Below, piece by piece: positions 37,348-56,016 of a stretch of DNA of 64,000 nt (the stretch's first letter is position 1; each line of letters opens with the position of its first letter). Location of the stretch: the IMG/VR virus record IMGVR_UViG_3300037840_000188, positions 32,001 to 96,000 of that record, one strand, 5' to 3'. The position numbers were made by a program, and so were the translations under genes. The notes under the pieces were generated by a model, which saw only the letters and a list, made by a program, of their open reading frames with translations, was not told where the DNA came from and made no database searches. Source of the stretch: a virus.

Positions 37348-38454
37348 CTACGCCACAAATCCGAACCCGGACGCATGATATCCCGGTAAGACCGATAAAT
37401 TGTGCGCTAGCAACACTTTACCGACTATTTTGGTGTTTCCAGCGCTGGGGATAAACCCATCATCATCCAGCGTCCCGTTGAACGGCGCATTCTTCGAAAT
37501 GCGGTACTTGATGTTCGGCTTGCGGGCGTTCAGGAACCAGATCGATTCGCCGCCCTGAAGGTTGCCGGACGGATACGCGGTCACCGCGCCGCCAGTGGTG
37601 TAAGACAGGTACCTGGTCGCCACGCGGTCGTTGGTGCCGCCGCTGGCTGTCAGGTAGGAGCCGGGAGCGTAACGAGAAGCCAGGATCACCGCACCGTTGT
37701 ATTCGAGGCCACGGAAACCGCCCTTGGCGATAGTGACGTTCTGGAAGCGCTGCTGAGTCTGATAGTTCGAACGAATGTAGCCCTGACCCTTGGCAGTTGT
37801 CAGGATGATGTTGGGCTCGTACTCGCCAGAACCATAGTTGACCGACTGGTACATGTTCTCCATCACCGGGAGGGTGATGTTCGCACCGGCGAAGTTGACG
37901 GGCGCGGGAGCCAGCATACGGCCACCATACAGCGAGCGAGTCAGGGTGCCATAGATCGGATAGGCCGAACCGTCCCAGCCGGGCGTCACGCCGTCAGAGA
38001 GGGCTTCATCGAGGCCGTTGATGACCTTGACATACGCGCCAGTCTGGCCCTGGAGATAGAGCTGGAGTGCGGTCTGCGCGCCGAGTTGCATGTAGGCGGA
38101 GTCCACGCGCTCTTCGACGAGCTTGATTACCGCGAGCGGCCCGTTGTTCAGCACCTTGATGTCTTCCTTGTAGAAGGGGATCATCACGGTCTGGTACTTC
38201 GGATCGAAGCGCAACTGCTGCTCGATCTGGCGCTGGTCGGCAGGCAGATCCTGACCCTTCGAGTACGAACCGCCATCCTGGACGTCATACTCGATGTTGT
38301 CGTTCCACGAAGAGCCGCCCTCGACCTCATCGAGACAGTTCTCGTCGAGGAAGGACATGAGCGGATCTTTATTGAATACGAGATCACGGAGCTTTGGCTG
38401 TTCGTCGATGTAGCGGCGAGTCGTGACTTCGATTTGCGAAAGAGTGTCAGGCGT
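37348..38454 (-). CDS. major capsid protein (inferred ACG start)
   Basis: Follows scaffold; INGLDEA, GGFRGLEYNGAVI; frame open to ACG at 38454. Confidence 0.8.
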   Translation of the reverse strand, partial: TPDTLSQIEVTTRRYIDEQPKLRDLVFNKDPLMSFLDENCLDEVEGGSSWNDNIEYDVQDGGSYSKGQDLPADQRQIEQQLRFDPKYQTVMIPFYKEDIKVLNNGPLAVIKLVEERVDSAYMQLGAQTALQLYLQGQTGAYVKVINGLDEALSDGVTPGWDGSAYPIYGTLTRSLYGGRMLAPAPVNFAGANITLPVMENMYQSVNYGSGEYEPNIILTTAKGQGYIRSNYQTQQRFQNVTIAKGGFRGLEYNGAVILASRYAPGSYLTASGGTNDRVATRYLSYTTGGAVTAYPSGNLQGGESIWFLNARKPNIKYRISKNAPFNGTLDDDGFIPSAGNTKIVGKVLLAHNLSVLPGYHASGFGFVA

Positions 38455-38486
38455 ATAGGTACCCTACCTTTGCTAGCTTAAATTCG

Positions 38487-39419
38487 TTACTGAACCGACT
38501 GAAACGCATCCAACAGCTTCGACCGGTCGTAAACTTTCTTGTCGCCACCGATTCCATCGCGTGACAGCGGCGATGGTGTACCGGCTCCAGTCGACGACGA
38601 CGCGCCCTCGGCACCTGCCGGGAAATTCGACTGCAACATCCGCTTCTTCATCCGCTCATTAACCTGGTCTTCGATGCGCTTTTCATCGGCGGCCAGCCGT
38701 GCGGCTTCAGCAGTCTTCTGGTCTTCGAGCACATTTGGCGCATCCCACTCTTCGTAGGCCTTGACCACGTCGCCCGCGATCTCTGGCTTTGCGGCCAGTT
38801 CGTCGAGCTTCTTCCAGTCGATGGGAGTCTTTTTGCCACGCGCGATATTGCGCATGATGTTCATCTCGACCGCAGTTCCGACTCCAATAAGAGTGCCCGT
38901 CACCTTCGGCGCGTAGACATTCTTATATGCCTCTTCGACACTCTCCTTCGCAGCGCCAGTACTGATTTCTTTGGCGATTGCCTGGACTTCTTCCTTGGTC
39001 AGGCCGGGGATCGAACTCGGGAGAGCAGGCGGGGTGGTGGTTGCGCCAATCTTCCCGTACTTGGCCTCATACTCCTTGACAGAAGCTTCAAGCGCCTTAC
39101 TGGAATCTTCGAGTTCTTTCAACTTGTTTGCGTTCCCGGTGATCGTCGCGTAGTTCTCGGCGTACCATTGCTGGTACTTGCGGCTGCCGGGCTTCGCATC
39201 GGTACCGATCAGTTCGGCTTCGAGTGTGGCCTTCGCGGCTTCGATCTGCTGCTTCTCGGCGAGCAGAGCATTAGCACGCTGCTCGATAGCCTGATACTCG
39301 GTGGCTTGGCGAAGTTGAGTTACCTTAGCCATCGTACTTGCGTTGCCAGTGAGCTTGGCGACCTCTTCGGTCGTCAACCCGCCTTCAATCAAAAGAGCCT
39401 GGAATTCTTGTGCGGTCAT
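38487..39419 (-). CDS. scaffolding protein
   Basis: Coiled-coil, charged; directly upstream of MCP. Confidence 0.65.
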   Translation of the reverse strand: MTAQEFQALLIEGGLTTEEVAKLTGNASTMAKVTQLRQATEYQAIEQRANALLAEKQQIEAAKATLEAELIGTDAKPGSRKYQQWYAENYATITGNANKLKELEDSSKALEASVKEYEAKYGKIGATTTPPALPSSIPGLTKEEVQAIAKEISTGAAKESVEEAYKNVYAPKVTGTLIGVGTAVEMNIMRNIARGKKTPIDWKKLDELAAKPEIAGDVVKAYEEWDAPNVLEDQKTAEAARLAADEKRIEDQVNERMKKRMLQSNFPAGAEGASSSTGAGTPSPLSRDGIGGDKKVYDRSKLLDAFQSVQ

Positions 39420-39426
39420 ACGTTAG

Positions 39427-39801
39427 TTACTGTCCTTGTGGCGGCGCGCCCTGAGGTGGCCCACCTGGCGGCGGAGTCAGTGGTGCCTGGCCGCCCTGCT
39501 GCGGTTGATTTCCTTGTCCGCCCATCGCCTGCTGTACGGCCATGGGTACGAGCTGCTGAGCGAGCGCGATGATCTGCGCACAAATCTGTTCCGAGCCAGG
39601 CACTGCCCCCGAGGTCACGACCTGTTTGCAGGCCTGCTGGATTGAAGTAACTGCATCCTGGACCGGCTGCGTACCCTGAAGGATCGCTTTTAAAAATCCG
39701 CCCTGCTTCGCTGGCGCTGCTGCGGGCTGCGCGGGAAGATCCGGCAACGGAGGCAGCGGTGCGGTACCGGCGCTGGTCGCGGGCGTTGGAGAAGGCGACA
39801 C
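39427..39801 (-). CDS. Pro/Gln-rich head-module protein
   Basis: ORF track. Confidence 0.55.
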   Translation of the reverse strand: MSPSPTPATSAGTAPLPPLPDLPAQPAAAPAKQGGFLKAILQGTQPVQDAVTSIQQACKQVVTSGAVPGSEQICAQIIALAQQLVPMAVQQAMGGQGNQPQQGGQAPLTPPPGGPPQGAPPQGQ

Positions 39802-39948
39802 TCAACGTATCCCCGCCTTATTTGCATCGCATGCGGGCGACGCGATTTCCTTGCCCATTGATTTTTGGCGACCGACCTTCGCGGAGAACCCGGTTTCCTT
39901 CTTCGTGAGTCCGACACCCCGGCTGGAGCCGCGCTTCTTACTGCCCAT
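39802..39948 (-). CDS. small basic protein
   Basis: MGSKKRGSSRGVG. Confidence 0.45.
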   Translation of the reverse strand: MGSKKRGSSRGVGLTKKETGFSAKVGRQKSMGKEIASPACDANKAGIR

Positions 39949-39965
39949 TGATTCGTGTTCGCGCT

Positions 39966-40166
39966 TCATTTGGCTATAGCCCCTTTACCCCTGAGCTTCG
40001 ACAATGTCTCCGCAAGGCGGGACTGTTTGCCGAGTTTTCCCGGCGATCCGGCGTTCTTCGCGGCAAATGACTGTGTGCCCATCCCGGCCTTCTTGGCTTT
40101 GGCTCCGAAAGCGCCCTTGTTGAGATTGGCGTGTTCTATCCAATCAGGGTCTGGGTTTGTGGGCAT
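39966..40166 (-). CDS. small basic protein
   Basis: WI...KGAF..KAKKAG...ARLAETL-like pattern. Confidence 0.6.
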   Translation of the reverse strand: MPTNPDPDWIEHANLNKGAFGAKAKKAGMGTQSFAAKNAGSPGKLGKQSRLAETLSKLRGKGAIAK

Positions 40167-40266
40167 CTAAGTGTGATGATGGACCTCGGAAAAGCGGGAA
40201 GTAAAGCGATCAAAGGGGTTACATCAAAGAAAGAACGACTGTGATAAACTGGGCGCAATCAGGACA

Positions 40267-40437
40267 ATGCTCATTACCGAGAGAGAGGTTGCCTCTATCA
40301 TGAATGTCTCCGTCAGCGTGGTCCGCAAATGGAGATGGAAGAATCACCCGCCAAGTTTTTTTAAAATAGGAAAATCTATTCGCTACGAAGAGAAAGACAT
40401 CTACGCTCTTAAGCAGAAAATGCGGGTAGAGCGATGA
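40267..40437 (+). CDS. excisionase/AlpA-like HTH protein
   Basis: MLITEREVASIMNVSVSVVRKWR...PSFFKIGKSIRY. Confidence 0.75.
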   Translation: MLITEREVASIMNVSVSVVRKWRWKNHPPSFFKIGKSIRYEEKDIYALKQKMRVER

Positions 40438-40804
40438 TCGACCTGCGCATCGAGAGCCGCTTTAAGAATGCTGCGCTATATAACGCGATGATCGCGTATT
40501 GCCTCCCTGAGGAACGAGGACCCGGAAGATCTTTTCCCTCGCCACATCTATCAACTTTCGCTCCCCAAAATCGCCGTCACGGAACCGGCAGTACAGGAGA
40601 AGCCGGGGCCGCTGTCTGCGCTGCGCCGTAGCTGGGCACCGCTCGATCCGGATAAGTTCTGGATCGGGTTGCAGAAGGATCTGTTTGATAGAGGCATCGC
40701 CTTTGAATGACAATTTTCCAGAGCGGATGTGTTATTACGGGAGATCCGTGATTGCCTTGTCTTTGGGGTCATGAATCACCACTCTGGAATTCAAGGAGCA
40801 TAAA

Positions 40805-40999
40805 ATGAAACAGGTTTTCCTTTCTCGCGGCAGCACGCATCAAGTAGTCTGCGTCCCCGCTCAATTCGCAATACGCGGCGCGTATCTTCGCATCCTCGAC
40901 GAGGATGGCTGGCGCGTGGACGAGGTGTATTCAGTCGGCGCGTCGCTCGCGACAAGCGATAGAAGAAATCTGAGGGGATTGTTCGGATCACTGGCATGA
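40805..40999 (+). CDS. hypothetical protein
   Basis: AAGGAG SD; ATGA overlap. Confidence 0.5.
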   Translation: MKQVFLSRGSTHQVVCVPAQFAIRGAYLRILDEDGWRVDEVYSVGASLATSDRRNLRGLFGSLA

Positions 41000-41235
41000 A
41001 AATGTCCTCCATCCAACCCGGCATGCGCCTGCGCTCGACCATTTCGCGAGTGCCGATGGAGGAGTTCATCACCGTCACAGAACTGACGGAGTCTGGGTTT
41101 CGATTTTCTCTCGATGCCGAGTACGTGATGATTACACGCTGGGGAATGACAATGGCAAAGGATGGCCACGAACATTTCGGATTCAATGGCGAGGCGTTTT
41201 ACGAGCCAGTGTATCAGTGCGAGGGCGCAGATTGA
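40996..41235 (+). CDS. hypothetical protein
   Basis: Coupled ORF. Confidence 0.5.
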   Translation: MKMSSIQPGMRLRSTISRVPMEEFITVTELTESGFRFSLDAEYVMITRWGMTMAKDGHEHFGFNGEAFYEPVYQCEGAD

Positions 41236-41404
41236 AGCCCAAGGTTAAATATCTGAATGGCTCCTGGTACGTCACCGGCGGCCTCGTGCCCATTGATTTA
41301 AGATTTGTCGCGCACGAGACATTAGGTGCGGCGGTTGAGGCGCTGTGTCGGTGGTATCGGGGTGGTGGTGGGGCAGCAATGATTCCATATGGAGGACAAA
41401 CGCA

Positions 41405-41851
41405 ATGAATCTGTCCCGTCGCGGATTTCTCGGTGGTGCTATTGCCGCTATCACCCTGCGGATACTCCCATCGCCGCTCGCCGCTCGCGAGCCACGCAAA
41501 TGGATCTGGCTGCAATTCCACACAGGATTTGATCCGAACTGTACGAGGGCTTGGGCGCGATGGGCCGCATGTCGCTCAGATGGCGTTTACTTTACTACCG
41601 CCGGGCCGATATTCCTTGAAGACGTAGGCACGTCCAGCATGGAATCTTCACCGGCGGTCCTTGCCGTAAAGCAGCAGACCCGCATTCTCCTGAATGAATT
41701 CCTCGATTCTCGCTGTGACTGCCATCCTGGCTATTGGTGCCAGATTCACGAGCACATGAGGCCGAAGGATTTTTCTGGATATATTCCGGACGATGAAGAT
41801 GAGGATGAGGAAGATACGCCTACAGCGATTTATGAGGTAGTCTCCGGATGA
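41405..41851 (+). CDS. hypothetical protein with Tat signal
   Basis: MNLSRRGFLGGAIAA; GGAGG SD. Confidence 0.6.
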   Translation: MNLSRRGFLGGAIAAITLRILPSPLAAREPRKWIWLQFHTGFDPNCTRAWARWAACRSDGVYFTTAGPIFLEDVGTSSMESSPAVLAVKQQTRILLNEFLDSRCDCHPGYWCQIHEHMRPKDFSGYIPDDEDEDEEDTPTAIYEVVSG

Positions 41852-42354
41852 TCTCTTGCGACCAACTCCCACCCGACAATAAACTTGTCTTCTCCGACGA
41901 CAGAGCACTACTTCCACATGGCTTTAACTGGGACATTCAGAAATGGCTATCGGAGTGGAGGCCGCTTCCGTATTTAATGCTTCGCGAACCGCTGCCGTAC
42001 GCAGACTGGACCGAGCTTCCAGACTTCCTTAAGATGACCATCCGGCAAGTCTGCTTCCAGCGCCAGCACTGGCAATTAAATAATATGCAACGCCTTTTCC
42101 GCGCGGCAGTCTGCGTAGAACACGGCTGGCAGATTCTTGGCCCGGAGATCGACACCCAGCATGGTCACGTAATCGCCGACTCTCCTGTCGTGGATGTGAT
42201 CGTTCGCCAGGCAGACCAGCCACCAGCGTCGATCCAGAGCCTAGCCGAGTTATCCGCGCAAGTATGGGCTGGGATGACAGATGCCGAGCGCGAGAAGCAT
42301 CCAAGGATCGGCGAGGTCGCCGCGTGTGCGGATCTAGATGGACTTAGCTTGTGA
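41848..42354 (+). CDS. hypothetical protein
   Basis: Coupled ORF. Confidence 0.5.
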   Translation: MISCDQLPPDNKLVFSDDRALLPHGFNWDIQKWLSEWRPLPYLMLREPLPYADWTELPDFLKMTIRQVCFQRQHWQLNNMQRLFRAAVCVEHGWQILGPEIDTQHGHVIADSPVVDVIVRQADQPPASIQSLAELSAQVWAGMTDAEREKHPRIGEVAACADLDGLSL

Positions 42355-42623
42355 GTATGTGTCGTGGCTGCGGTCAAGCAGATGGACGACCACGCCTCTG
42401 CCATAGTTGCACTGTGAGGCGTCAGGATCTATTTGCCGTTCAGGTAATGACTATGCAAGCGATGGGTATGAGCTTGAGAGAGATCGGCGAGAGGCTGGGA
42501 AAATCAGCCGAGCGCGTGCGGCAGATCCTGTACTTGGGCTGCCGACGGTGTTTTGTGTTGCGCGATGAACGAGGAGCAATTATCCCCTCCGAACGCAAAT
42601 CGAGATTTTACGGTACAATCTAA
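42351..42623 (+). CDS. sigma70 region-4-like HTH protein
   Basis: MSLREIGERLGKSAERVRQI. Confidence 0.7.
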   Translation: MSMCRGCGQADGRPRLCHSCTVRRQDLFAVQVMTMQAMGMSLREIGERLGKSAERVRQILYLGCRRCFVLRDERGAIIPSERKSRFYGTI

Positions 42624-42625
42624 TT

Positions 42626-42774
42626 CTGCGAGCAAGTTGATAGATCGGGATCGCTTCGTCAACGTCGCCCCTGATCCTTGCGTCCCCGTAGTTGCTGGAA
42701 GGAAGCCTCGGCCACCGGGGTGATAACAAAGCGACGGAGCGGTGAATCCGGCCAGTTCCGGAACTTGCTCGCAG
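42626..42774 (+). ncRNA. candidate rod-shaped ncRNA (6S-like architecture)
   Basis: 13-bp closing stem, nested helices, TACAAT 6 nt upstream. Confidence 0.5.
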
Positions 42775-42793
42775 CGTAATATCATCGTAGTCA

Positions 42794-44413
42794 GTGGCCC
42801 AAAACCAAATCCCCGCCCGTCTGCCCGGCGCAACGCCACAGACGATCAGCGACCTTTACGACAAAATTAACTACCTCCTCTCAAAGCAATCCCCATCTTC
42901 AACCCCAACCACCACCCCAACTGCCCCCACCACTCCGACCACCTCCATAGTCGCTGATATCAGCGGCGCGAGCGGTCAGGCATCTGGTCCACAGTTCGCC
43001 GACATCCCGATCCTCGCCACCCTTCCATCTAATAACCCCGTGCAGGGCGCACCGTACGCACAAAATGGCCTGATGATCGACGTTGGCGGTCAACTGTATA
43101 TCTATGTCGCGGGGCCAACCTTTGCCTGGACTCCTGCCGTTGCCGAAGCCACGTTTCAGGCTGCCGAGACGCTGACCGTTGGCGGCACTGCCAATGCGAT
43201 CACTGGCACCACGCCGACCACCTACGCCGCACTCGCTACCGGTTACGTAATCCGCCTTATTCCGACCGCTACAAATACCGGGGCCGTGACTATCAACATA
43301 AATTCCATCGGCGCAAAAGCCATCACAAAGAACGGCACTGCGGCGCTCGTTGGGGGAGAACTGGTCAATGGCAATACGTATTTCCTCTTATACGATGGCA
43401 CTCGTTTTCAGATTCTTGGTGAAATCATCAACGAAGTCACCTTGGCGAACAGTGAATGGGTGACCGTCGGGGGGGCGGCAAACGCCATCACTGGCATTAC
43501 GGCGAATAAATACACCGCACTCGCGAATGGTTTTCTCCTGCGCCTTATTCCAACCTCCACAAATACGGGGGCTACGACACTCAACATCAACAGTATCGGC
43601 GCGCACGCAGTCACAAAGAACGGCAACGTCGCCCTGACGGGCGGAGAACTCACTTCCGGAATTGTTTATTTTCTGCTCTGGGATGGTACGGAATTTCAGA
43701 TCGTCGGATCGCAACCTGTTACCGAGGCCGCGATTGCGAACAGTGAGTGGATAACGGTTGGCGGCACTGCGAATGCGATTACCGGTGCTACGGCTACCCC
43801 CTACACCTCTCTCGCTCCTGGATTCCTTATCCGGATCATTCCGACCGCAAATAATACCAGCGCCACGACGCTGAATGTAAATGGTATCGGCGCACAGCCG
43901 GTAACGAAGGACGGTAACACAGCCCTCTCGGGAGGTGAACTGCTCAGCGGCGTAGCGGCCTTTCTATTGTGGGATGGAACAGAATTTCAAATAGTTGGAG
44001 CTGCTGCCGGAGTGACGCAGACTGTGGCTACTTTCACTCCTGCGCTTCTTATCGGCGGCTCTGGTACCGGCATCACCTATTCCAACCAGACCGGCGTTTC
44101 TATCCTGACCGGCGATCAGGTAGTACTGCTCGTATCGCTGACCCTATCCGGAATCCCAGCCCCGAGTGGTGGTGCGCTGACAATCGACGTATCTGGTGCC
44201 GCTGTTCCTGTGTCGGTCGCCCCTGGCGGCATCGTGACGATCTGCTACATGACAGGCTGGCAGTCATTAACGGGCGCGCCGAGCGGGCTCCTTCCCACCG
44301 GAACCGGGAGCGTGCATCTTTACCAGTGGGGTGCTACGGGCGTTTCTGGCCTCACTGACGCCAACATCACTGCTGCCAGTGTGATTTATCTGGCGGTGGT
44401 CTATGTGACGTAG
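42794..44413 (+). CDS. tail fibre-like protein with three tandem repeats
   Basis: 3x VGG.ANAITG...NTGA.TLNIN...GGEL..G...L.WDGT.FQI. Confidence 0.7.
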   Translation: MAQNQIPARLPGATPQTISDLYDKINYLLSKQSPSSTPTTTPTAPTTPTTSIVADISGASGQASGPQFADIPILATLPSNNPVQGAPYAQNGLMIDVGGQLYIYVAGPTFAWTPAVAEATFQAAETLTVGGTANAITGTTPTTYAALATGYVIRLIPTATNTGAVTININSIGAKAITKNGTAALVGGELVNGNTYFLLYDGTRFQILGEIINEVTLANSEWVTVGGAANAITGITANKYTALANGFLLRLIPTSTNTGATTLNINSIGAHAVTKNGNVALTGGELTSGIVYFLLWDGTEFQIVGSQPVTEAAIANSEWITVGGTANAITGATATPYTSLAPGFLIRIIPTANNTSATTLNVNGIGAQPVTKDGNTALSGGELLSGVAAFLLWDGTEFQIVGAAAGVTQTVATFTPALLIGGSGTGITYSNQTGVSILTGDQVVLLVSLTLSGIPAPSGGALTIDVSGAAVPVSVAPGGIVTICYMTGWQSLTGAPSGLLPTGTGSVHLYQWGATGVSGLTDANITAASVIYLAVVYVT

Positions 44414-45354: not shown

Positions 45355-47328
45355 TCAACCCGATGTTGCTATTGTGGGTCCATTTGCATTCTGCTTGAGA
45401 CTTGGTGGGGCTTGGTCTGTCTGCTTCCGACCCGCCGAGTTCGCGATTAAGCCTATCCCGAGTTGCTGCTGAAGTGCCAGCCGACCAATTTCATCAGCAG
45501 GGATTTTTAATCCAGGAGGAGAAAAATTATCTCTTCCCGCAGCTTCCATGAGAGAAAAAACGGATAAATATCCCATTTTAGCCAACATAAAGTCCTGAAG
45601 GAGCTCCTGCTGCCCGGCAGAATTAAGCAACGAAGATGGCGCGAATTTAAATGCAAACGACGCAAGCATTGCCTTCGCTCTTTCATACAGCGGTCGCGGT
45701 CCATCAGACATAAAAGCATCCAGCGTCGAGCCCACGTCACCAGGCTCCCCATCCGGCACATCATCTGGAATGAAGTTTCCAGCAGAGAAATCATAATCCT
45801 CTGCTGTTACTGCGTCTGGACCAAACTTCATTAACCGCTTGGAAAGTGTATCGAATTCAGCAATACAATATAAAAATTGTTCGCTAAATTCCTTCATAAA
45901 CCCTTCCAGAATCCTTGATCTTAAACGGATTCCAGGCGTTTGAAACTTGGCGATGGTATCGAGTGTATCGTCGGATGGTATCTGATTTAACGACGCCATT
46001 CCCTGAATATTCGCCGTCCCTGCCGCCTCCCGCATCCATTCTTCGAGCTTCTCGATATGCGTCCAGATTGACTGCGGAAGAGTAGGCGGATTAACGATCT
46101 GAATTCCCTTCCCAGAAGCCGGATTAGATCTCACTTTATATCCGGCGACCGCCGAATTAAACTTAGTAAACTCGCTGCGGGAAACATTGCGATCCGCAAT
46201 AGCACCAGGCTGCGCAATTTGAGCGGCATTATTATCCACCACTCGACACAGACCGTTCAGCGACTCATTAAGCGGAAGAAGGTCCCAGAGCGGGGCCTTC
46301 CCCAAGAACGACATCGGCCACGGATTCAACGTGAGCTTGATGAGGGGATATTGACCATGCCAGTACGGCGACGTATCGTCATAAAGCATGACGCCGTTTG
46401 ACCATACAATCATCCGCTTAAACGGGTAGAGCGGCATCCCGGGCTTGACCTTGTATGACCATTGATTCTGCCCGACTAGTTCGCCTTTTTCGTTTTTCTC
46501 CCAACCCCCCATGTAGACATCGTGTTTATATGGATTAGTGCGCGGGTCGTCCAGATAGAGGGTACGCAGAAAGCACGTGGGAGTCTTTGGAATTGGGGCG
46601 TCTGCATGCTTCCGGTCTGGAGATAACGGCCCAGTAACCGAACTCTTGCCGGTAACTGCCCCCACTGCGTGAAGAAACCACCCGAAGATAGATTGCCCGC
46701 CAACGTTAGGGGCTACGTCTTTTCCGTACTCTGATTTAATCCATGCTGGAGTTTTTGCCTGATTGAGGATGACGCCCTCAGCATCCTGAAGGGTGTGATA
46801 CGAGATGGGTCCGATTGGAATTACGTTTCGTGGATCGACGGCATCCACCATCATGTCATTCAGGCGGCGGGAGTAATACAAGTGGGCATAGCCCGTACCG
46901 CAACACGTGTAGTATCGAATTACATCACTGATCCGCAGGTCGATGCAGCGCTGCGTATACCAAGCCGAAGCTTCTTTATTGGATATTCTAGCCTGATTTT
47001 CGTACTTGGGATTATTCGTGGAGTAGTTCCAAAACACCCGTGCGTCGGTCAGCATCGCCGTGATATCTTCAGCGGTAATTGCCACCTTGTTGACCCGAGT
47101 GTTACTCAGGGGGCGCGGCGTCGGAGCATAACTGGCATTCGATGAGGTCTTTTCGTAAGCGAAAATCGCCCCGATGGTCTTGTCGATCTTGTCGTACCCA
47201 ACCTGCGCCTCAATAAACTCCTGCCCCTGTTTAAGGCGAGCCTCGCACCAGCTGATGATCGCGTAATCCCGCGTCCCCGGCTTAGCAGGATCGGGCTCAG
47301 GCAGAGGCGGCAAATCAAAGTCAGGCAT
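45355..47328 (-). CDS. portal protein
   Basis: CGTGY, VDPRNV, PYWHGQYP, FLG..P..DL...N; between terminase and head genes. Confidence 0.8.
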   Translation of the reverse strand: MPDFDLPPLPEPDPAKPGTRDYAIISWCEARLKQGQEFIEAQVGYDKIDKTIGAIFAYEKTSSNASYAPTPRPLSNTRVNKVAITAEDITAMLTDARVFWNYSTNNPKYENQARISNKEASAWYTQRCIDLRISDVIRYYTCCGTGYAHLYYSRRLNDMMVDAVDPRNVIPIGPISYHTLQDAEGVILNQAKTPAWIKSEYGKDVAPNVGGQSIFGWFLHAVGAVTGKSSVTGPLSPDRKHADAPIPKTPTCFLRTLYLDDPRTNPYKHDVYMGGWEKNEKGELVGQNQWSYKVKPGMPLYPFKRMIVWSNGVMLYDDTSPYWHGQYPLIKLTLNPWPMSFLGKAPLWDLLPLNESLNGLCRVVDNNAAQIAQPGAIADRNVSRSEFTKFNSAVAGYKVRSNPASGKGIQIVNPPTLPQSIWTHIEKLEEWMREAAGTANIQGMASLNQIPSDDTLDTIAKFQTPGIRLRSRILEGFMKEFSEQFLYCIAEFDTLSKRLMKFGPDAVTAEDYDFSAGNFIPDDVPDGEPGDVGSTLDAFMSDGPRPLYERAKAMLASFAFKFAPSSLLNSAGQQELLQDFMLAKMGYLSVFSLMEAAGRDNFSPPGLKIPADEIGRLALQQQLGIGLIANSAGRKQTDQAPPSLKQNANGPTIATSG

Positions 47329-47385
47329 TGCCTCTATCATACGGCAAGTCGTGCCGAATCACCCAATTGCGATATGCTGGAGAGA

Positions 47386-48671: not shown

Positions 48672-48674
48672 ATC

Positions 48675-48890: not shown

Positions 48891-49153
48891 CGCGGCGCGA
48901 GGAAGCAGTGAATCTTGCGGCCTTCGGTGCGAGTGCAGAGACGCCAGTCGCCCTTGTGGATACGTTGACCGGCGGTGAGAATTGTGGAGCGGAAGGAGGG
49001 AACCGTGAGATTGGTGGGGGTAACGACTTCCAGTTGCTGGCCCGGCTCAAGAGCCTTTAACTGGGAATTCAAACCGGACCAGTCGGATCGTTGTCTGGGG
49101 ATATCCAGAAGTTCACTGACCCGACCGATCCTGGTTCGAAGAGGACTCGCCAT
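48887..49153 (-). CDS. hypothetical protein, last gene of TROVE operon
   Basis: Adjacent to upstream stop. Confidence 0.6.
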   Translation of the reverse strand: MASPLRTRIGRVSELLDIPRQRSDWSGLNSQLKALEPGQQLEVVTPTNLTVPSFRSTILTAGQRIHKGDWRLCTRTEGRKIHCFLAPR

Positions 49154-49498: not shown

Positions 49499-49503
49499 GA
49501 AGC

Positions 49504-50097
49504 TCAGCGCGAGCGCGGCTTGGCAGTTATTTTTCGCAAATCATTCAAGCGCTCGACGAGCGCCTCGTTAGCCAGGTAAGTCTTGTAATTTATCTCATCC
49601 GGCTGATTTAGATAATGCATATCCGAGGAAACACGACCATATTCGGATGAGGCTATCCACGCCGAATATTCCATGCTCCCCCGAAGCTTATTACAGCGAC
49701 GGCAGGCGCTAACTAGATTGTCCTCAGCCGTCGCCCCACCATCCTCCCAGAGAATTACGTGATCCACCGTTAATGGCTTTTCTTGACCACAGTACCTACA
49801 CCGAAAGTGATCTCTCCGAAAGACATTCCAGCTGACGAACTGATCTATCTGCCGCTGGCTCTTTCGAAGAATCGCCTTTCCCGGCCCTCGCACATCGAGC
49901 ACGTCGGACTGATTCAGGAAGCGCTCCCACTGAGCGGTGTCCATCACGAGCAGTTCGTGCTCGCCCGCGAGGTCTTCGTCTGGTAACGGGACGAGATACA
50001 CTTTCCCGTTACCAGTCCAGATCGCACCGCCGAGTTGAATCGTGTGGCCGACTTCGAGGATGTCGAGGTCGGCTAACGTCACCTGAGTGGCGGTCAT
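49504..50097 (-). CDS. HNH endonuclease with N-terminal extension
   Basis: RDHFRCRYCG...LTVDHV...NLVSACRRCN. Confidence 0.88.
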   Translation of the reverse strand: MTATQVTLADLDILEVGHTIQLGGAIWTGNGKVYLVPLPDEDLAGEHELLVMDTAQWERFLNQSDVLDVRGPGKAILRKSQRQIDQFVSWNVFRRDHFRCRYCGQEKPLTVDHVILWEDGGATAEDNLVSACRRCNKLRGSMEYSAWIASSEYGRVSSDMHYLNQPDEINYKTYLANEALVERLNDLRKITAKPRSR

Positions 50098-51614
50098 GCC
50101 GCCACCAACTCACGAACGCCGAGCACCTGATCGAGGGTCAACAGAGGGCACGACATGATCTTTTCAACGACACCAAACCGAGAGGCGTTCATCGACTGTA
50201 CGAGGTTTGGCAGCGCATAGTAGTCGGTCCCATTCGTCAGATCATATTCCGTGAACTGCAACCCAGCCGCTGCCATTGCGGCTCCAAACAGACGCGGACT
50301 TCCATTGCCCATCGCGTACCGAGCATCAACAAATGTCCGGTACAGGTAAACCGGAACCTGCTTGTCCGTCTGGCGCTTGAAATGTTGATACGCCGTCGCG
50401 AACATCGGGTGACTGTTCTCGCCTCCATCGCCCACGATTGCGATCCCATCGATATTAAGCTTCTTGTCGAGCGCCCAAGCGAGGCCAACGCCATACGAAG
50501 TACCACCGCTGGCGAAGATGAACTTCGTCTGCCCTTTGATCTCGTCAAGCGTCTTGCCGGTTACCTCGATAGGAGTCACGTCCGTATTGCAGAAAACAAG
50601 CCATACGCGGCCCGTCACAAACTTCGCAATAGCAGCACCGATGTGCGCTCCGAGTTCAATAGCCTGCTCCTGCGACTGGCTGCGATCCACGATCACAAGC
50701 CAATCACCCTCAATCCCCCGCCCCGCATCCTTCTGAGCCTGAATCTGACGCTCCTGGAGTTCGCGAAGCATGGTCTTCAATCCCTTGTCCTCGACTTCAT
50801 CAGCCGCGACCGAGGTCTTGAGCGTTGCCTTATTGCTCTTCGTCGCCTTCGCAACTTTCTTTCGGAAGGTGTCCTTCAGCGCGGCATCTCGCGAGAGACC
50901 CTTCTTTTCGAGGCTCTTTGCCCGCGTCACGACCTCGGTATCGCTCATTTGGTCCATACCGGCCTGAACGACCTCTGAGGCCTGCTGCGTGGCCTTTGCG
51001 CCAGTCATGGCACCACTGACCACCAGTGGAGACAAATGCCACTTCTGGATCGTTGCAGCAACCTGTGCCGGGGTCATCTTCGAGAGATTCTTGATGTCGG
51101 CGAAGATCGTACCCTGCGCCGGATTGCCGTTGAACAGCACATCCGCAGCGAAAGCTGGAATCTTCGCATGAGTCAGCGCGTACAGCGACTTCAAACTGCG
51201 CCGGTGGCGAGCCGCGAGGCGGTTCCATTTGCCCGGCTCGGCAGCCTTGGCGTCGAGATAAGAATGGATCATCCGTTTGATCGCCGTATCGCGACGGCGG
51301 GCCAAATTAAGTGTGGCCGAGAAGCGGAGCGCGCGAAGAATTTCGCGCGGCGACTGCATCGCCAGATGCGCCAGCGAGTTCTCGACAAGCTCATCGGGAA
51401 ACTCACGCGTGGCCAGCGTGATCACTGGGAGAGCGATCTTTGTATCCTTTATTTGCCCGTTCGTGAAGTCAAAAGCGATTAAATGGGCGAGAAATTCCGG
51501 GTCCTGACGGCAGGCTGCGCCGATCACGTTCTGATAGGCGGCGAGGTCTCCGTGAAGGGAAAGATTTAACTTCCCTACGATTTCGTTGCGCGTGATTCCG
51601 AGTTCTTGTGACAT
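50094..51614 (-). CDS. TROVE/Ro60-like protein with C-terminal vWA domain
   Basis: Helical N-region with QDPEFLAHLI; vWA VIVDRSQS, GGTS, IVGDGGEN; Y-RNA-like genes upstream. Confidence 0.75.
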   Translation of the reverse strand: MSQELGITRNEIVGKLNLSLHGDLAAYQNVIGAACRQDPEFLAHLIAFDFTNGQIKDTKIALPVITLATREFPDELVENSLAHLAMQSPREILRALRFSATLNLARRRDTAIKRMIHSYLDAKAAEPGKWNRLAARHRRSLKSLYALTHAKIPAFAADVLFNGNPAQGTIFADIKNLSKMTPAQVAATIQKWHLSPLVVSGAMTGAKATQQASEVVQAGMDQMSDTEVVTRAKSLEKKGLSRDAALKDTFRKKVAKATKSNKATLKTSVAADEVEDKGLKTMLRELQERQIQAQKDAGRGIEGDWLVIVDRSQSQEQAIELGAHIGAAIAKFVTGRVWLVFCNTDVTPIEVTGKTLDEIKGQTKFIFASGGTSYGVGLAWALDKKLNIDGIAIVGDGGENSHPMFATAYQHFKRQTDKQVPVYLYRTFVDARYAMGNGSPRLFGAAMAAAGLQFTEYDLTNGTDYYALPNLVQSMNASRFGVVEKIMSCPLLTLDQVLGVRELVAA

Positions 51615-51623
51615 AAAAATAAA

Positions 51624-51792
51624 GGGCGGCGTGTCGATGGACTGTTGCTTTTAGGCAATCACCAAATGATTGTGCCCCGCCGTGGAGCCTCTCCCCCGTA
51701 AGCGCTTTTCAGCAGTTTTATGGGTGGGGGAGGTCGGAATCGAACCGACTGTCTTCTTGCGAAGATGCGTGTAAGTCCGTCAGTTTCCGCCC
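51624..51792 (-). ncRNA. Y RNA-like (YrlA-type, permuted T/acceptor/D)
   Basis: Terminal stem, T arm GTCGG-TTCGATT-CCGAC, closed acceptor. Confidence 0.75.
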
Positions 51793-51829
51793 TAACTTAG
51801 TGCCTCAATAAAACGGAGGCGAAATCAAA

Positions 51830-51994
51830 GGAAGCCATGTCGATGCGCTTTGCTGTTATTGGCAAGTCATGCGCTCTACCGCTGAGCTAATCGCTCACTG
51901 GTGAAATCGTTTCCGACTAGTCGACCAGTGAACGATTCTGGATTTGAACCAGAGACCTCATGAATTAAACGTGTATGCGCGTCAGTTTGCTTCC
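51830..51994 (-). ncRNA. Y RNA-like (YrlA-type, permuted)
   Basis: T arm, long closed acceptor, then D arm TAGCTCAGCGGTAGAGC. Confidence 0.85.
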
Positions 51995-52033
51995 TGTCTC
52001 GATGAAAGCCGCGTCGTCAGACTCTCGAACTTA

Positions 52034-52157
52034 TTCCCGGCATGTCGATGCGCGTTGATCCCTTACGGGAACGGTTGGAGTTGAACCAACTACCTAAAGC
52101 GTTGAAGGCTTTTGCTCTACCAAATGAGCTACGTGTAAGCGCGTCAGTGTCCGGGAA
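52034..52157 (-). ncRNA. Y RNA-like, non-permuted with UCA anticodon loop
   Basis: D arm, AAAGC-CTTCAAC-GCTTT, T arm; shared terminal motifs instead of acceptor/CCA. Confidence 0.75.
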
Positions 52158-52185
52158 AACCTTTCGAACTTGCGTCCGAAACATC

Positions 52186-52216
52186 AGACTACCACATTAC
52201 CCATGTTACCTGTCAA
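52186..52216 (-). promoter_or_regulatory. promoter of the Y-RNA/TROVE operon
   Basis: TTGACA...TGG-TAGTCT (extended -10, 19-nt spacer). Confidence 0.5.
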
Positions 52217-52236
52217 GTGATTTCTGAAAATAAATC

Positions 52237-52725
52237 TCAGACCTTAACAGTCAGCACCGGATCTGAATAAGCCTGATCCAGAATCTTCGTCTCCTGAATG
52301 GGCGACCCGACATTCGTCAGCAGCTCCCGCTCCGCCGTAGCCGACCCCTTATCGAAGTGCGACGCCTCATGTACGAGCCCGGTCTTACGCTCGAAGTCGT
52401 TCCGCTTCTGATGGGTGTCAAGCTCGACGCGCTCATATCCCTGCCGCCGGTAGACTTCAGGCATCTGAAGATCGGCACGTGCGGGAATGCGGCGCTCGCC
52501 GGTGCGGGGGTTCATATACACCACGGCGCGTTCGGATGGGTGGATCGAGGAGATGCGGCTTCCACCGTGGGGGGCCGTATGTCCGTGCTTCCCGGATTCA
52601 TCCTGGCAATATGGCCAGGACCCTACCGGGCGCGGTCGGCCACATGAAGGACACAGATCAACAACACCAGCAGGAGCAGGGGGAGATTCTCGCGATTGAG
52701 CAGAAATTTCATTGACGGAAGTCAT
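52237..52725 (-). CDS. hypothetical zinc-finger protein
   Basis: CPSCG...WPYC...H. Confidence 0.6.
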   Translation of the reverse strand: MTSVNEISAQSRESPPAPAGVVDLCPSCGRPRPVGSWPYCQDESGKHGHTAPHGGSRISSIHPSERAVVYMNPRTGERRIPARADLQMPEVYRRQGYERVELDTHQKRNDFERKTGLVHEASHFDKGSATAERELLTNVGSPIQETKILDQAYSDPVLTVKV

Positions 52726-52729
52726 TAGA

Positions 52730-52879
52730 TTAGCACGCACACTTCCCAAACCTCTCCGCACACCGACACAGATTGCACCTGCAATCCCGAGATCGCGCTA
52801 TCCACGGCGACATCAGGATGGCGCTGAAGAGCAACGCAAGACCGAGGAGAGCAAGTAACGTGGGGCGAGTCAGGGTCAT
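52730..52879 (-). CDS. small TM protein with Cys-rich tail
   Basis: MTLTRPTLLALLGLALL...CRCNLCRC...CAC. Confidence 0.45.
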   Translation of the reverse strand: MTLTRPTLLALLGLALLFSAILMSPWIARSRDCRCNLCRCAERFGKCAC

Positions 52880-53073
52880 GTCCGCGAAGGCGTAAGCCGC
52901 CCGGTGACCACGGCAAATGCCGCTAGATCGTCCTCGTCTTTGATCGAGACGTTCACGCCGCCGAGGTCCACATCCATGTAATCTTTCTTCGTTACTGGAT
53001 CGATCTGCGGGGAGACCCGTACGACTTGATCGAGATTCAGGAGTTGGCCGGTTTTTAGCTTAAAGAGGGTCAA
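52876..53073 (-). CDS. hypothetical protein
   Basis: Coupled ORF. Confidence 0.45.
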   Translation of the reverse strand: MTLFKLKTGQLLNLDQVVRVSPQIDPVTKKDYMDVDLGGVNVSIKDEDDLAAFAVVTGRLTPSRT

Positions 53074-53375
53074 TACGTCGCTCCGTACAGCGCAGGCCGG
53101 ATCACAGTGCTCCACGTGAATTCGCTCACCGAGACGCCCTGCGAGCGGTTCTTTAGTCGCTTCAGTACGTCTGGCGGGATGATAATTCTCGCAACACCTT
53201 CGCCATTCGGCATTTCCTCGATAGAGCATTCAGGGCAGACTGGCTTCGGCTTCGCCTGGCGTGGGGCTGGTGCGCCCTCGGGGGCTTCTTCGACTCGCTC
53301 CGCTTGCGGGAGCGGTATTGCGGATTGCTTGACTGGGGGGCGGAGGACTGTTGGCTTTTCGGCTGCTGTACTCAT
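53070..53375 (-). CDS. hypothetical protein
   Basis: GGAG SD, coupled. Confidence 0.55.
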   Translation of the reverse strand: MSTAAEKPTVLRPPVKQSAIPLPQAERVEEAPEGAPAPRQAKPKPVCPECSIEEMPNGEGVARIIIPPDVLKRLKNRSQGVSVSEFTWSTVIRPALYGATY

Positions 53376-53641
53376 TATTTCTGATCTCCGATATTTTCTA
53401 TTCTGACACATCTTCCAGCGTATTCTTCATCGGTCTCGTTAATCCGGCGCGACGGGAGCGCGTACATGGTTCCGTCCGGCATCCATGGCGCTGAGCGGAT
53501 GTCCGGCATCACGAACTGGATATCGTCTGGTGTTGCTGGGATCGTCTTGATGTTGGCCACTTTTCGGTAGACCTCGTCTGCGGCCCGAAAGGCGGCTATG
53601 TGGAGTGGGTTGAAGGGGTCGAATTTAAAAGTATCGCTCAT
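53375..53641 (-). CDS. hypothetical protein
   Basis: ORF track. Confidence 0.5.
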   Translation of the reverse strand: MSDTFKFDPFNPLHIAAFRAADEVYRKVANIKTIPATPDDIQFVMPDIRSAPWMPDGTMYALPSRRINETDEEYAGRCVRIENIGDQK

Positions 53642-53644
53642 GAT

Positions 53645-54562
53645 TTAATCGTCAGACCAGTCGTCCACCGCCGCTGCCCAAGCCTCGCGATACGACTTTT
53701 GCTCGCCGCTCATCGTTGGAGCTAGGTGCTGCCAGTCTACATCGAGTCGCTCTGTGACAGGCTCGTCAGTTCGCTCTGGATTATCTGTCCAGCGATGACC
53801 AGCCCAGAATGCCAGGTTACAGGCCCGGAGGCGATCATCGTGGATTCCATAAGCACCACGAGCAGTCATTCTTTGCATGTCAACAACGGCATTAGCGTAC
53901 TCATCTACAGCCCACGGCGACATTAATTTCACCCTGCGAGACATCAGGTGCATGCGTGCCCTGGTCCACAGAATTCTCGTGCTCCTTGGCGTCGCCTGCC
54001 AGCCTATAACGTTCGTGTCTTCCGCGACGGTGTTGGCAAACTGCTGCCACATCCACATATTCCCGTACCCAAGTCGGATTAATTCCTGCGTCATTAGGGG
54101 ACCGGGGCCGGGGTATGACTCGTATATAAACTCGCACTGATCCCCTTCTTCTCCCGCGTACATGCGCCCCATGACATTGGCTACTTTTGCCAGCTCTGCA
54201 GCATCAACAGGAGCCGCGAACTCGGCCACCTGAAGATCCCGCATGACAAACGCTTGTGTGCCCGTAGCCTTGTCGATGACCGGCTTATTATTCTTGAATA
54301 GCGGCATCTTTATGGCATTCGGTCGGAAAATTTCGATCACGCCGTTATCGGTCTTATAGTCATCTTCGCGACGAGACCCTCGGCTCCAGTTCGTAATCCC
54401 CTCGGACGGGTCCGCCGCCATTATGTATTTGGCCCAATGTTTTGGCTCTTCCCAGACGAGCAGTAATCCCCTGGGGTCACCATTGACAGACTCGTCGGCT
54501 TCGCCAGTTCGCAAGAAGGAACTTCCAGATACGTGGAAGGCGGATTGGAATTCGTCGTTCAC
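53645..54562 (-). CDS. terminase large subunit, nuclease domain
   Basis: YIMAADPSEG, QVAEF, GIHDDRLRA. Confidence 0.85.
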   Translation of the reverse strand: MNDEFQSAFHVSGSSFLRTGEADESVNGDPRGLLLVWEEPKHWAKYIMAADPSEGITNWSRGSRREDDYKTDNGVIEIFRPNAIKMPLFKNNKPVIDKATGTQAFVMRDLQVAEFAAPVDAAELAKVANVMGRMYAGEEGDQCEFIYESYPGPGPLMTQELIRLGYGNMWMWQQFANTVAEDTNVIGWQATPRSTRILWTRARMHLMSRRVKLMSPWAVDEYANAVVDMQRMTARGAYGIHDDRLRACNLAFWAGHRWTDNPERTDEPVTERLDVDWQHLAPTMSGEQKSYREAWAAAVDDWSDD

Positions 54563-54568
54563 AATATC

Positions 54569-55825
54569 CTAGTTTACCGACAACTCATACTCATAACAGG
54601 CCCCTGGATTCATGCACTCGTTAGTTAGCTGCTCGATAAGCTCTGGCGACAAGGCCCCTTTATGTGGCGATTGAAAGGTCTCTCCGGGATCAGCCCCAAA
54701 ATTGGTCAGAAACTCTGGCAACTCTCCGTTACTTACATGCTCTGCCCGCGTGGACTCCCACCAATAAAGCTGCTCGCGAGTCGGTCGATATGTAATGCCA
54801 TCATTGAACTCCGGCGAAGTGCGCTCGATCTTCTCGGCGTGCTTACGTGTATGCTCTTCCGGAACCCAATCATCTGGCGCAATGGCTCGATATTTGGTTT
54901 TGTTATACCACCACGGAACGAAGCAATAAATCCAGTCCTCGTAACCTCGACGGTGCCACCTCGCTCCCTCCGAAGACTCATGCCAATAATTCCCCTTACC
55001 GTCAGACGTAGATTCCTGCACGTGGAGGGTCGTGATGGCTTTTGGAATCGAAGGAACGAAGCTGAACCTTATTTTTCCAGGCTGCTTGAATAACGCGACC
55101 TCAGTGAGGTGCGAAATATCGTTCTGCGTACCCGTGCCAAAGCCAGTTTCCGAATTCTCCGCCTGATAGCTGATACGACTTGATATCGGATCTTCAAATC
55201 CCAGTTCCGCATTCTGTTTGTCAGGATAAATGTTAGGCTTTAACCACCAGGCGAGCTTATCGAGAAAGAGATGATCACGAGCAAAAACTTCCGAAATGCG
55301 CTGATCGTCGAGAGTCGCGAACAGGCCGCGCACTGGATACCAGAAAAGCATCCGATGCCACATCATGCCGCGCACTGTCGCTGTTGCGGCGACCTGGCGA
55401 ACCTTGTGGATGTACGCCTTAATGCCTGTCGTGAACTTATACTTGCGCTGCTCTTCGTGGCACTCTACCTCGCGCTTGCCAAAAAGTTTGATATATCGAT
55501 GCTGAGATTCAAGCAGCATTGGCGGTCCGATACCGCTGCCACGCCCGACGCCGGGGTCGATTTCCAGATTGAAATATCTCGAAAAAAAATACTCGAAGTC
55601 TACCTTGCATAACAGGCGCTCACTATCCAGAAATTCTTCTTCCTCGCGGTTTAGTGGCCTGATTAATTGCCCCTGCGGTAGGAGCTTTCTTGTTTTCGGA
55701 TCGCGAATCAGCGTCTCTAGGTGCGTAGAAAATTCAATCGAACGGTCGCGGCTCTGGCGCTGGAATTTGAGACCAGCCTTTTTGGCCTTGTGTAAACGCT
55801 GGGCGATTATTTCCTGACTGTACGT
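54569..55825 (-). CDS. terminase large subunit, ATPase domain (inferred ACG start)
   Basis: HKVRQVAAT (Walker A-like), HLTEVA (Walker B), ESTSDG, FVPWW. Confidence 0.85.
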   Translation of the reverse strand, partial: TYSQEIIAQRLHKAKKAGLKFQRQSRDRSIEFSTHLETLIRDPKTRKLLPQGQLIRPLNREEEEFLDSERLLCKVDFEYFFSRYFNLEIDPGVGRGSGIGPPMLLESQHRYIKLFGKREVECHEEQRKYKFTTGIKAYIHKVRQVAATATVRGMMWHRMLFWYPVRGLFATLDDQRISEVFARDHLFLDKLAWWLKPNIYPDKQNAELGFEDPISSRISYQAENSETGFGTGTQNDISHLTEVALFKQPGKIRFSFVPSIPKAITTLHVQESTSDGKGNYWHESSEGARWHRRGYEDWIYCFVPWWYNKTKYRAIAPDDWVPEEHTRKHAEKIERTSPEFNDGITYRPTREQLYWWESTRAEHVSNGELPEFLTNFGADPGETFQSPHKGALSPELIEQLTNECMNPGACYEYELSVN

Positions 55826-56016
55826 AGCCGATTCTCCTGTGCCATCCCGACGCGCTCTGTATAACCCTGCCTGCTCTGCGCCTCGGTAGCCTTACGATAC
55901 TCCGCAGCATCCCGAGCCGTCCACTGCCTGTTACCGATGGCGCGCAGGGCGACTACGTTGTCAGTGGGACCGTCGCCGAAGAGGCGGAATTTTTTGGAGA
56001 GGATGGGTTCTGTCAT
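55807..56016 (-). CDS. hypothetical protein
   Basis: ORF track. Confidence 0.5.
   Translation of the reverse strand: MTEPILSKKFRLFGDGPTDNVVALRAIGNRQWTARDAAEYRKATEAQSRQGYTERVGMAQENRLRTVRK

Follow-up and report, generated by a model that had tools for sequence, protein, structure and literature searches.

Can the major capsid protein and the large terminase of a bacterial virus both be translated from ACG, and what would place such a codon at the start of two head genes in one genome? The question is raised by a 64,000-nucleotide stretch of DNA (the window) that comprises bases 32,001-96,000 of the 140,995-bp virus record IMGVR_UViG_3300037840_000188 (54.6% G+C), which derives from an uncultured soil phage of about 141 kb. 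ACG is not among the start codons of NCBI translation table 11. A first-pass annotation of the window, made from the sequence alone, placed the starts of both genes at ACG and proposed that they form a translational gate on virion assembly. Judged from the sequences of relatives, the ACG starts of the two genes are very probably real. The account that we somewhat favour is that both genes are intact and ACG-initiated, and that the capsid ACG belongs to a leader cassette linked to an HNH homing endonuclease, a connection which the first-pass annotation missed and which fits the evidence better than an assembly gate.

The ACG starts of the capsid and terminase genes

The genes and codons in question are located as follows.

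37348..38454, minus strand: major capsid protein gene of 368 codons, start ACG 38454-38452 (from phrog_9953 and homolog N-termini)
38356..38358, minus strand: first canonical ATG in the capsid frame, encoding the internal Met36, which aligns with an internal M of homologs (...DPLMSF...)
54569..55825, minus strand: large terminase (TerL) ATPase-domain gene of 418 codons, start ACG 55825-55823, stop TAG 54571-54569 (from fold and homologs)
55834..55838, minus strand: AGGAG Shine-Dalgarno (SD) motif, read from the sequence, with an 8-nt spacer to the terminase ACG
55517..55519, minus strand: first canonical ATG in the terminase frame, encoding the internal Met103 (from the list of open reading frames (ORFs) and the homolog alignment)

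On re-reading, the coordinates and frames first given for both candidates all hold. The capsid frame is open over 37348..38463 (minus strand) with its first canonical start, an ATG, at 38358; the ACG is located 32 codons upstream of this ATG and is itself preceded, four codons upstream, by an in-frame TAG (38466-38464). In the terminase gene the stop-to-stop frame spans 54569..55891 (minus strand), its first ATG, GTG or TTG is the ATG at 55519, and the ACG lies 102 codons further upstream, below an in-frame TAA at 55894-55892. Both ACGs follow SD-like sites about 7-8 nt upstream, as had been described: AGGAG with an 8-nt spacer in the terminase gene and AGGG, also with an 8-nt spacer, in the capsid gene.

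A search of 5.8 billion proteins yielded 281 capsid and 179 terminase-like homologs, of which the best 120 are listed for each, and a second scan of IMG/VR with the capsid alignment found the same 23 loci again. The capsid ORF matches the PHROG profile phrog_9953, major head protein (E 4e-13), from residue 7 of the stop-to-stop ORF. Nearly all of the best 120 of the 281 capsid homologs begin (MPD...) at the codon that aligns with the ACG, with the N-terminus MPDTLSQIEVTTRRYID and invariant residues P2 and D3; read from the ACG, the window protein starts with (M or T)PDTLSQIEVTTR. The same is true of nearly all of the best 120 of the 179 terminase homologs, which share the N-terminus MYS..II.RRL..AKKAG with an invariant Y2, the window protein reading (M or T)YSQEIIAQR. 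Homologs begin at the ACG codons and not at the downstream ATGs, as anticipated, and the few shorter homologs of either protein proved to be truncated gene calls. Downstream of the preceding in-frame stop, no ATG, GTG or TTG is encountered in the frame before the conserved N-terminus of the capsid protein in the window, nor in the relatives L011 and L018; likewise, none is found ahead of the conserved terminase N-terminus in the window, L094 and L096.

ACG is the capsid start codon in five other lineages, L011/L012 (a 94.7-kb contig), L018 (62.8 kb), L144, L159 (a Logan run) and L161 (an NCBI metagenome-assembled genome, MAG), and the terminase start codon in two, L094/L095 (an NCBI MAG and a Logan run) and L096/L097 (two runs). 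Further near-cognate capsid starts are ATC in L118, L142 and L160, CTG in L021 and ATT in L022. Across the 50 distinct 5' regions, or alleles, that represent the relatives and the window, the capsid gene begins with ATG (27), GTG (10), ACG (6), ATC (3), TTG (2), CTG (1) or ATT (1). With both genes pooled, the codon is ACG in 9/9 lineages and never ACA, ACC or ACT, and ATC, CTG and ATT are also one mismatch from AUG. Since ACG makes up 33% of the threonine codons in the window genome, its retention in all nine lineages is consistent with a codon kept so as to pair with the anticodon CAU.

The two Cs could in principle be assembly or sequencing errors, or marks of genes that are dying, and it is true that the closest relatives have canonical starts (GTG in L098 at 98% identity, ATG in P0003 at 91%). 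Such an artefact is nonetheless highly improbable, given that ACG, in the capsid gene together with the matching leader described below, is present in at least seven other independent assemblies, and that the window differs from L098 across the whole leader and not at one base. The first-pass view that two such codons are not random error is thus borne out by the aligned N-termini and by the recurrence of ACG. Decay is opposed by the intact ORFs and by strong purifying selection on both genes: between the window and L018, 23 of the capsid codons 2-35 differ synonymously and 0 non-synonymously, and the 101 terminase codons before the first ATG show 40 synonymous and 21 non-synonymous differences between the window and L094. 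Prophage domestication, the alternative named in the first-pass annotation, is excluded in view of this selection, of the 141-kb virus contig and of the lack of any prophage relative among 185,579 species genomes.

C-to-U editing of the mRNA, which had also been suggested, would restore AUG in the way known from plant-organelle ACG starts, and both ACG to AUG and CUG to UUG are a single C-to-U change. ATC (three lineages) and ATT (one lineage) at the capsid start are not repairable in this manner, and editing of this type is, to our knowledge, not established for the mRNA of bacteria or phages; we consider it extremely improbable here.

Among the genes that could be compared, the phenomenon is confined to the two head genes. 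A genome-wide start test covered the 56 ORFs of the window genome (G000) that have homologs in three related records (G001-G003, 62.8-107.6 kb and 100% complete by CheckV estimate), and only the capsid and terminase genes have a homology-supported start without a canonical codon. Six further candidate genes with apparent upstream homology were all resolved to ordinary ATG or GTG starts, and no other gene of G001-G003 showed a near-cognate start among the tested homologous ORFs.

A leader cassette precedes near-cognate capsid starts

The nucleotides directly upstream of the capsid ACG form a recurrent element.

38455..38471, minus strand: leader cassette AAAGGTAGGGTACCTAT, with an SD-like AGGG and a conserved 8-nt spacer directly before the ACG (from the alignment of near-cognate alleles)

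The consensus of this leader, AAAG-N-AGGGTA-NN-T(A/C)T, is present in 10/10 capsid alleles that begin with ACG, ATC or CTG and in 0/39 canonical alleles, which have ordinary AGGAG leaders. Put the other way, a near-cognate start is found in 10/10 alleles with the motif and in 1/40 without it, the latter being the ATT allele (Fisher 1e-9, with alleles counted as independent). The leader is invariant, as AA...AGGGTA..T.T, in the ten near-cognate alleles although the adjoining wobble positions are saturated. It is also specific to this gene. Before homology-supported starts the motif occurs at the capsid gene only, both in G000 (searched as GGGTA..TA[TC]) and in G001-G003 (searched with the looser GGGTA..[TC][AC][TC]). 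A role as a genome-wide start or promoter signal was discarded, as GGGTA..TAY occurs only seven times in the 141-kb genome.

Several other explanations of the leader were tried and rejected. RNAalifold proposes a 5-bp stem between GGGUA and the start codon, but without covariation and at only -1 kcal/mol, and single-sequence folds of the leader are no better than those of shuffled sequences (z -0.6 to +0.9). A group I intron with an ORF would not fit into the 32 nt between the upstream stop and the ACG, nor into the HNH inserts of about 600 nt described below, and an intron is further disfavoured by the ATC alleles, which lack a terminal G. A read-through or frameshift fusion to the upstream ORF is opposed by in-frame stops four to seven codons upstream, the scaffold frame meeting a second stop, and a bypass-type fusion would have a GGG-stop take-off site without a landing codon.

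Two side observations concern the capsid region. The window carries a second copy of the capsid N-terminal peptide (IPDELSQIETTTRRYI) at 36044-36119 (minus strand), in which an ATC (36119-36117), with CAT before it, occupies the position of the capsid start. This is the codon of the L118, L142 and L160 alleles (TAT-ATC-CCN-GAY), so that the copy may derive from an ATC-type cassette allele. Separately, L006, L008, L010, L016, L115 and L120, which belong to one sub-lineage, share a conserved palindrome, GTAATCATTAC, about 15-30 nt upstream of a capsid ATG or TTG; it is located between the scaffold stop and the capsid SD and may be a hairpin or an operator.

The cassette is linked to a homing endonuclease

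Upstream of the capsid gene lies a gene in the position of a scaffold gene.

38487..39419, minus strand: gene in scaffold position, ending 32 nt before the capsid ACG (from the ORF list; a homolog is located upstream of the capsid gene in G001-G003 and L098)

This gene has no match in protein family (Pfam, PHROG) searches. Between the scaffold and capsid genes of L144, L161, L118, L142, L160, L005 and L019 lies a gene for an HNH endonuclease of 165-170 aa (phrog_3377, E 1e-43 to 1e-46). It is sporadic, being present in 7/50 distinct capsid alleles and absent at the capsid site of the window. The capsid genes of the seven HNH-bearing alleles begin with ACG (two), ATC (three) or GTG (two) and never with ATG, which in contrast is the start of 23/35 HNH-free alleles with enough upstream sequence (p 0.002). 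In L118 and L142 the leader coincides with the last codons of the HNH ORF (...K-V-G-stop, GGG-TAG-CTAT-ATC), and the 17-nt leader of the window matches the 3' end of the HNH gene of these two relatives at 17/18 positions. The leader is kept without an HNH gene in the window, L018, L011 and L021.

The distribution of the element is mosaic. On the capsid tree the ACG label needs five changes for five rows, with ACG and leader states scattered, and closely related alleles differ at the start: the window (ACG) is sister to L098 (GTG, 98% identity), L118 (ATC) to L119 (ATG) and L011 (ACG) to L123 (ATG). Identity between L118 and L119 is about 35% upstream of the gene and 92-100% from codon 2 onward, with the jump at the start codon. 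The window and L098 are about 80% identical over the first 100 nt and 92-96% over nt 100-350; taken together, the window/L098 and L011/L123 pairs show 80-82% over the first 100 nt against 88-96% over the next 200-250 nt, a pattern like that of a conversion tract.

A different sequence is found near the capsid gene of L133, which has no HNH gene but carries a stretch (CGTTAACTAACTGA) close to that at the HNH 3' end of L005 (CGTTAAGTAACTGA), the L005/L109 type. By its sequence, this stretch of L133 appears to represent a second type of endonuclease footprint, located upstream of a capsid GTG with an ordinary AGGAG leader.

The terminase start lies in a different context

The features around the terminase ACG are as follows.

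55807..56016, minus strand: upstream ORF of 69 codons that overlaps the terminase start by 19 nt (from the ORF list; an identical overlap and 69-aa ORF are present in L096)
53645..54562, minus strand: large terminase nuclease-domain gene with a GTG start, in frame with the ATPase gene after a single TAG
45355..47340, minus strand: portal protein gene, given for context (phrog_156 portal, E 1.9e-10)

Pfam and PHROG searches of the ATPase-domain ORF gave no match, but its AlphaFold model (pLDDT 84.7) finds the ATPase domain of T4 gp17 (2o0j) as the best Foldseek match (E 5.6e-11), along with the TerL proteins of HK97, Sf6, D6E and P74-26, and thus has the ASCE ATPase fold characteristic of terminases. 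The protein contains the invariant segment H140-K141-x-R143-Q144-x-x-x-T148, which by eye resembles the deviant Walker A motif K-x-x-R-x-G-x-S/T with Ala in place of the usual Gly. The model of the next gene product (pLDDT 68) matches the RNase H-like nuclease domain of RB49 and T4 gp17 (E 1e-4 to 1.5e-5, TMt 0.63-0.71) and also G20c, hence TerL is split into two genes in the window. The junction consists of the single in-frame TAG followed by GAT-ATT-GTG. Relatives have two frames with a 1-nt overlap, a fused protein of 738-740 aa (P0081, P0117) or inserted HNH genes (L030, L051) at this position, and the split point looks like a hit-and-run site for homing endonucleases. A 167-aa insert at the split in L038 has a DPPY motif and is by eye DNA methyltransferase-like, with no PHROG match.

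The 69-codon ORF has no match in family (Pfam, PHROG) searches. Its 19-nt overlap with the terminase gene has, as read from the sequence, the geometry of translational coupling, and the terminase start is located either inside a small upstream ORF or 2 nt past its end. All three terminase ACG lineages fall within one well-supported clade of eight members, whose tree needs three changes for the three rows, and their sisters P0003 (91% identity to the window) and P0015 begin with Met. No HNH gene of the capsid-linked family is found near the terminase start in 80 loci of relatives, and the L096 contig has no capsid gene within 10 kb. ACG alternates with ATG in this one small subclade and is probably tolerated there; a weak, coupled start is plausible for a protein of which few copies are required. 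A 197-aa HNH endonuclease (phrog_16726, E 1.5e-15) is encoded at 49504-50097 (minus strand), in an insert between the terminase and portal genes, and belongs to another family than the capsid-linked HNH gene of the relatives.

Such alternation could also reflect a permissive host. If the host initiated adequately at near-cognate codons, ATG and ACG would be near-neutral alternatives and the endonuclease link would be a matter of hitch-hiking. Non-ATG starts are indeed frequent in the clade (GTG, TTG or CTG at 23/46 of the relatives' terminase loci surveyed, and 23/50 of the distinct capsid 5' regions), ACG and ATG alternate three times in the eight-member terminase clade, and an ACG in the mycobacteriophage Corndog entails no obvious loss of expression in Mycobacterium (PMC4351075). 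Neutral drift would not, however, predict that near-cognate capsid starts are found with an ordinary AGGAG leader in 0/39 cases, nor that leader and ACG stay fixed while adjoining synonymous sites are saturated, and no other gene is near-cognate in the four genomes. We therefore regard drift in a permissive host as unlikely.

Phage factors and the assembly gate

The window encodes 23 tRNA genes in three clusters (20678-30037, minus strand), and G001-G003 encode none. One of the two tRNA-Met(CAU) genes, at 23725-23802 (minus strand), has an A1xC72 mismatch, G2:C71, C3:G70 and A73, which are formylation determinants, together with C11:G24 and an anticodon stem (GAAGC/GCTTC) without the three G:C pairs. 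These three pairs are the element that is inspected by initiation factor 3 (IF3) and 16S rRNA (PMC2268962). By these features, read directly from the sequence, the tRNA is a candidate phage initiator with relaxed proofreading, and it is conceivable that it escapes the inspection by IF3 and reads ACG. As an explanation of the ACG starts this is very unlikely. C11:G24 is typical of elongator tRNAs, an unchanged CAU anticodon brings no particular advantage at ACG, and the capsid ACG occurs in G001 and G003, which lack tRNA genes, so that a phage tRNA is not needed for the capsid start, contrary to the earlier suggestion. Near the tRNA clusters, two near-identical stretches of about 33 nt, at 23848-23880 (plus strand) and 28264-28297 (minus strand), both contain GGGTAATTATATAGTTG, and the second immediately precedes the gene 27261-28265; the pair could represent promoter- or operator-like repeats.

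In the proposed assembly gate the weak ACGs would tie capsid and terminase synthesis to a drop in initiation fidelity late in infection, brought about by depletion or modification of IF3 or by a phage factor, in the manner of the AUU start of infC. IF3 does repress non-canonical starts (PMC2268962), two head genes of one genome share ACG, the capsid leader is conserved under selection and the 23 phage tRNAs include the initiator-like tRNA-Met. The trait itself is not conserved, as sister phages whose proteins are 91-98% identical begin these genes with ATG or GTG. Several relatives also have ACG, so that the outcome named in the first-pass annotation as refuting it, ATG in all close relatives, is not what is seen. 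G003 has ACG in the capsid gene and ATG in the terminase gene, and so the two ACGs are uncoupled. Only 2/56 testable genes are affected, and the portal, tail and other late genes start with ATG, GTG or TTG. No factor common to the ACG-bearing genomes was found, G001 and G003 being without tRNAs; a 121-aa ORF is common to the window genome, G001 and G003 and missing from G002, but by eye there is nothing obviously translation-related about it. A coordinated gate is not supported by these data and seems unlikely.

Proposed mechanism and points against it

The start positions, the recurrence of ACG, the purifying selection, the cassette, the endonuclease link and the mosaic pattern are observed; the efficiency of initiation at the window ACGs we infer. 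In the cassette account, initiator tRNA would pair with A1 and G3 of the ACG, aided by the SD-like site 7-8 nt upstream. The capsid ACG would be no isolated mutation but the last triplet of a cassette of about 20 nt, made up of AAAG-N-AGGGTA, the spacer NN-TAT and then ACG, ATC or CTG, and this cassette would represent the 3' flank of the free-standing HNH gene that is inserted between the scaffold and capsid genes in relatives. It would move among near-identical capsid genes by recombination, and the window phage may have come to carry it without the endonuclease either by loss of the latter or by co-conversion of the flank alone. The non-ATG start and the altered leader could persist on account of making the site refractory to the endonuclease, a rationale of immunity that parallels the T4 MobA/gene 60 system and whose chances we put as evenly balanced. 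The terminase ACG would be tolerated where little terminase is needed and its translation is coupled to the overlapping upstream ORF.

Several points weigh against this account. L005 and L019 bear the HNH gene yet use GTG with an ordinary AGGAGG leader. Both association tests given above count as independent a set of alleles that are related and not fully so. The endonuclease might prefer to insert beside a pre-existing leader, and neither bring nor select it. As the capsid-type HNH gene is missing near the terminase start, the cassette covers the capsid gene only. Lastly, ACG in E. coli yields 0.1-1% of the output of AUG, with a product that carries Met and, in one culture, some Thr (10.1101/063800), and such an output is difficult to square with the capsid protein being the most abundant in the virion.

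Implications

ACG being outside the bacterial start-codon table, gene callers have truncated the proteins of at least seven relatives, five of them capsid proteins (P0163, P0164, P0215, P0225 and, in DNA, L144) and two terminases (P0005, P0052); the calls for P0163 and P0164 stop at the internal capsid ATG and give proteins of 337 aa. If ACG and ATC do drive synthesis of the most abundant virion protein, start-strength values from E. coli are not transferable to these hosts or leaders, and the 17-nt leader would be a candidate element for efficient near-cognate starts. The homing-endonuclease link also provides an evolutionary rationale, open to testing, for a change that would otherwise be costly.

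Comparison with known systems

Eukaryotic viruses also use ACG starts, as in VP2 of adeno-associated virus (AAV) and the C' protein of Sendai virus. Like the window capsid gene these encode a capsid or accessory protein that starts at ACG, but there leaky scanning by the 40S subunit sets the ratio of isoforms, whereas the window capsid has no alternative AUG isoform and its start is of the SD-guided bacterial type.

Near-cognate initiation in bacteria, exemplified by the AUU of infC, which IF3 senses, and by measurements of all 64 codons in E. coli (10.1101/063800), is closer in that a single mismatch to the CAU anticodon lies behind an SD, and by this analogy the N-terminal residue at the window ACGs is expected to be Met. 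ACG belongs to the weakest class in E. coli (10.1101/063800). The infC AUU is conserved for autoregulation and the ACG is patchy among sister phages; the conservation across orthologs expected of an infC-type start is seen for neither the capsid nor the terminase ACG.

In the Cluster O mycobacteriophages Corndog, Firecracker and YungJamal the tape-measure gene is preceded by an inserted HNH gene (Cresawn et al. 2015, PMC4351075). Where Dylan and Catdawg, which are HNH-free, use ATG, these phages carry ACG; peptides start immediately behind this codon and no reduction of expression is visible, the choice between ACG initiation and bypassing being left undecided (PMC4351075). According to the Corndog record, the HNH endonuclease is gp56 (phrog_3593, E 1e-80), and 4 nt separate its TGA from ACG-GCA-ATA-CAT..., the sequence that codes for the published tape-measure N-terminal peptide mapped by mass spectrometry. 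Corndog thus resembles the capsid alleles in that a structural gene begins with ACG in place of the ATG of HNH-free sisters, with an HNH gene directly upstream, and its GGG-TGA-TCTT-ACG has the same geometry of GGG, stop, 4 nt and near-cognate codon as the GGG-TAG-CTAT-ATC of L118 and L142. It differs in the gene (tape measure), in the endonuclease family (phrog_3593 as opposed to phrog_3377), in the host and in being a single case in one cluster, while the capsid alleles recur across a diverse clade, use ACG, ATC or CTG, share a conserved leader and include leader-only alleles. The association of the capsid leader with near-cognate starts and its HNH link are new, and the pairing of ACG with an HNH gene as such has its precedent in Corndog (PMC4351075).

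The closest analogy to the capsid cassette is the T4 MobA/gene 60 cassette (Bonocora et al. 2011). MobA is an HNH endonuclease linked to the bypass cassette of gene 60, which protects from nicking and outlives the endonuclease in T4-like phages (10.1101/2022.08.31.505936). In both systems an HNH endonuclease is accompanied by a short stretch of DNA that imposes a non-standard mode of translation on an essential gene; this stretch persists when the endonuclease is gone, and the insertions have a patchy distribution among near-identical genes. The T4 element is a 50-nt bypass inside an ORF, whereas the capsid element combines a leader with a near-cognate start codon; protection against the enzyme is demonstrated in T4, and for the capsid cassette we infer it.

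As a tentative generalisation, rather doubtful at present, phage HNH endonucleases may recognise the start regions of essential late genes, and a switch from ATG to a near-cognate codon, in a dedicated leader that maintains adequate expression, may confer immunity on phages and on the endonuclease cassettes themselves. ACG would then be a real and recurrent start codon of bacterial viruses that gene finders miss. The capsid alleles with their endonuclease link provide a second, independent instance of the pairing of HNH and ACG after Corndog, which points to a wider rule by which selfish endonucleases drive the recoding of essential phage genes, and recoding as immunity would, if true, unite the capsid alleles, the tape-measure ACG of Corndog and the gene 60 bypass of T4.

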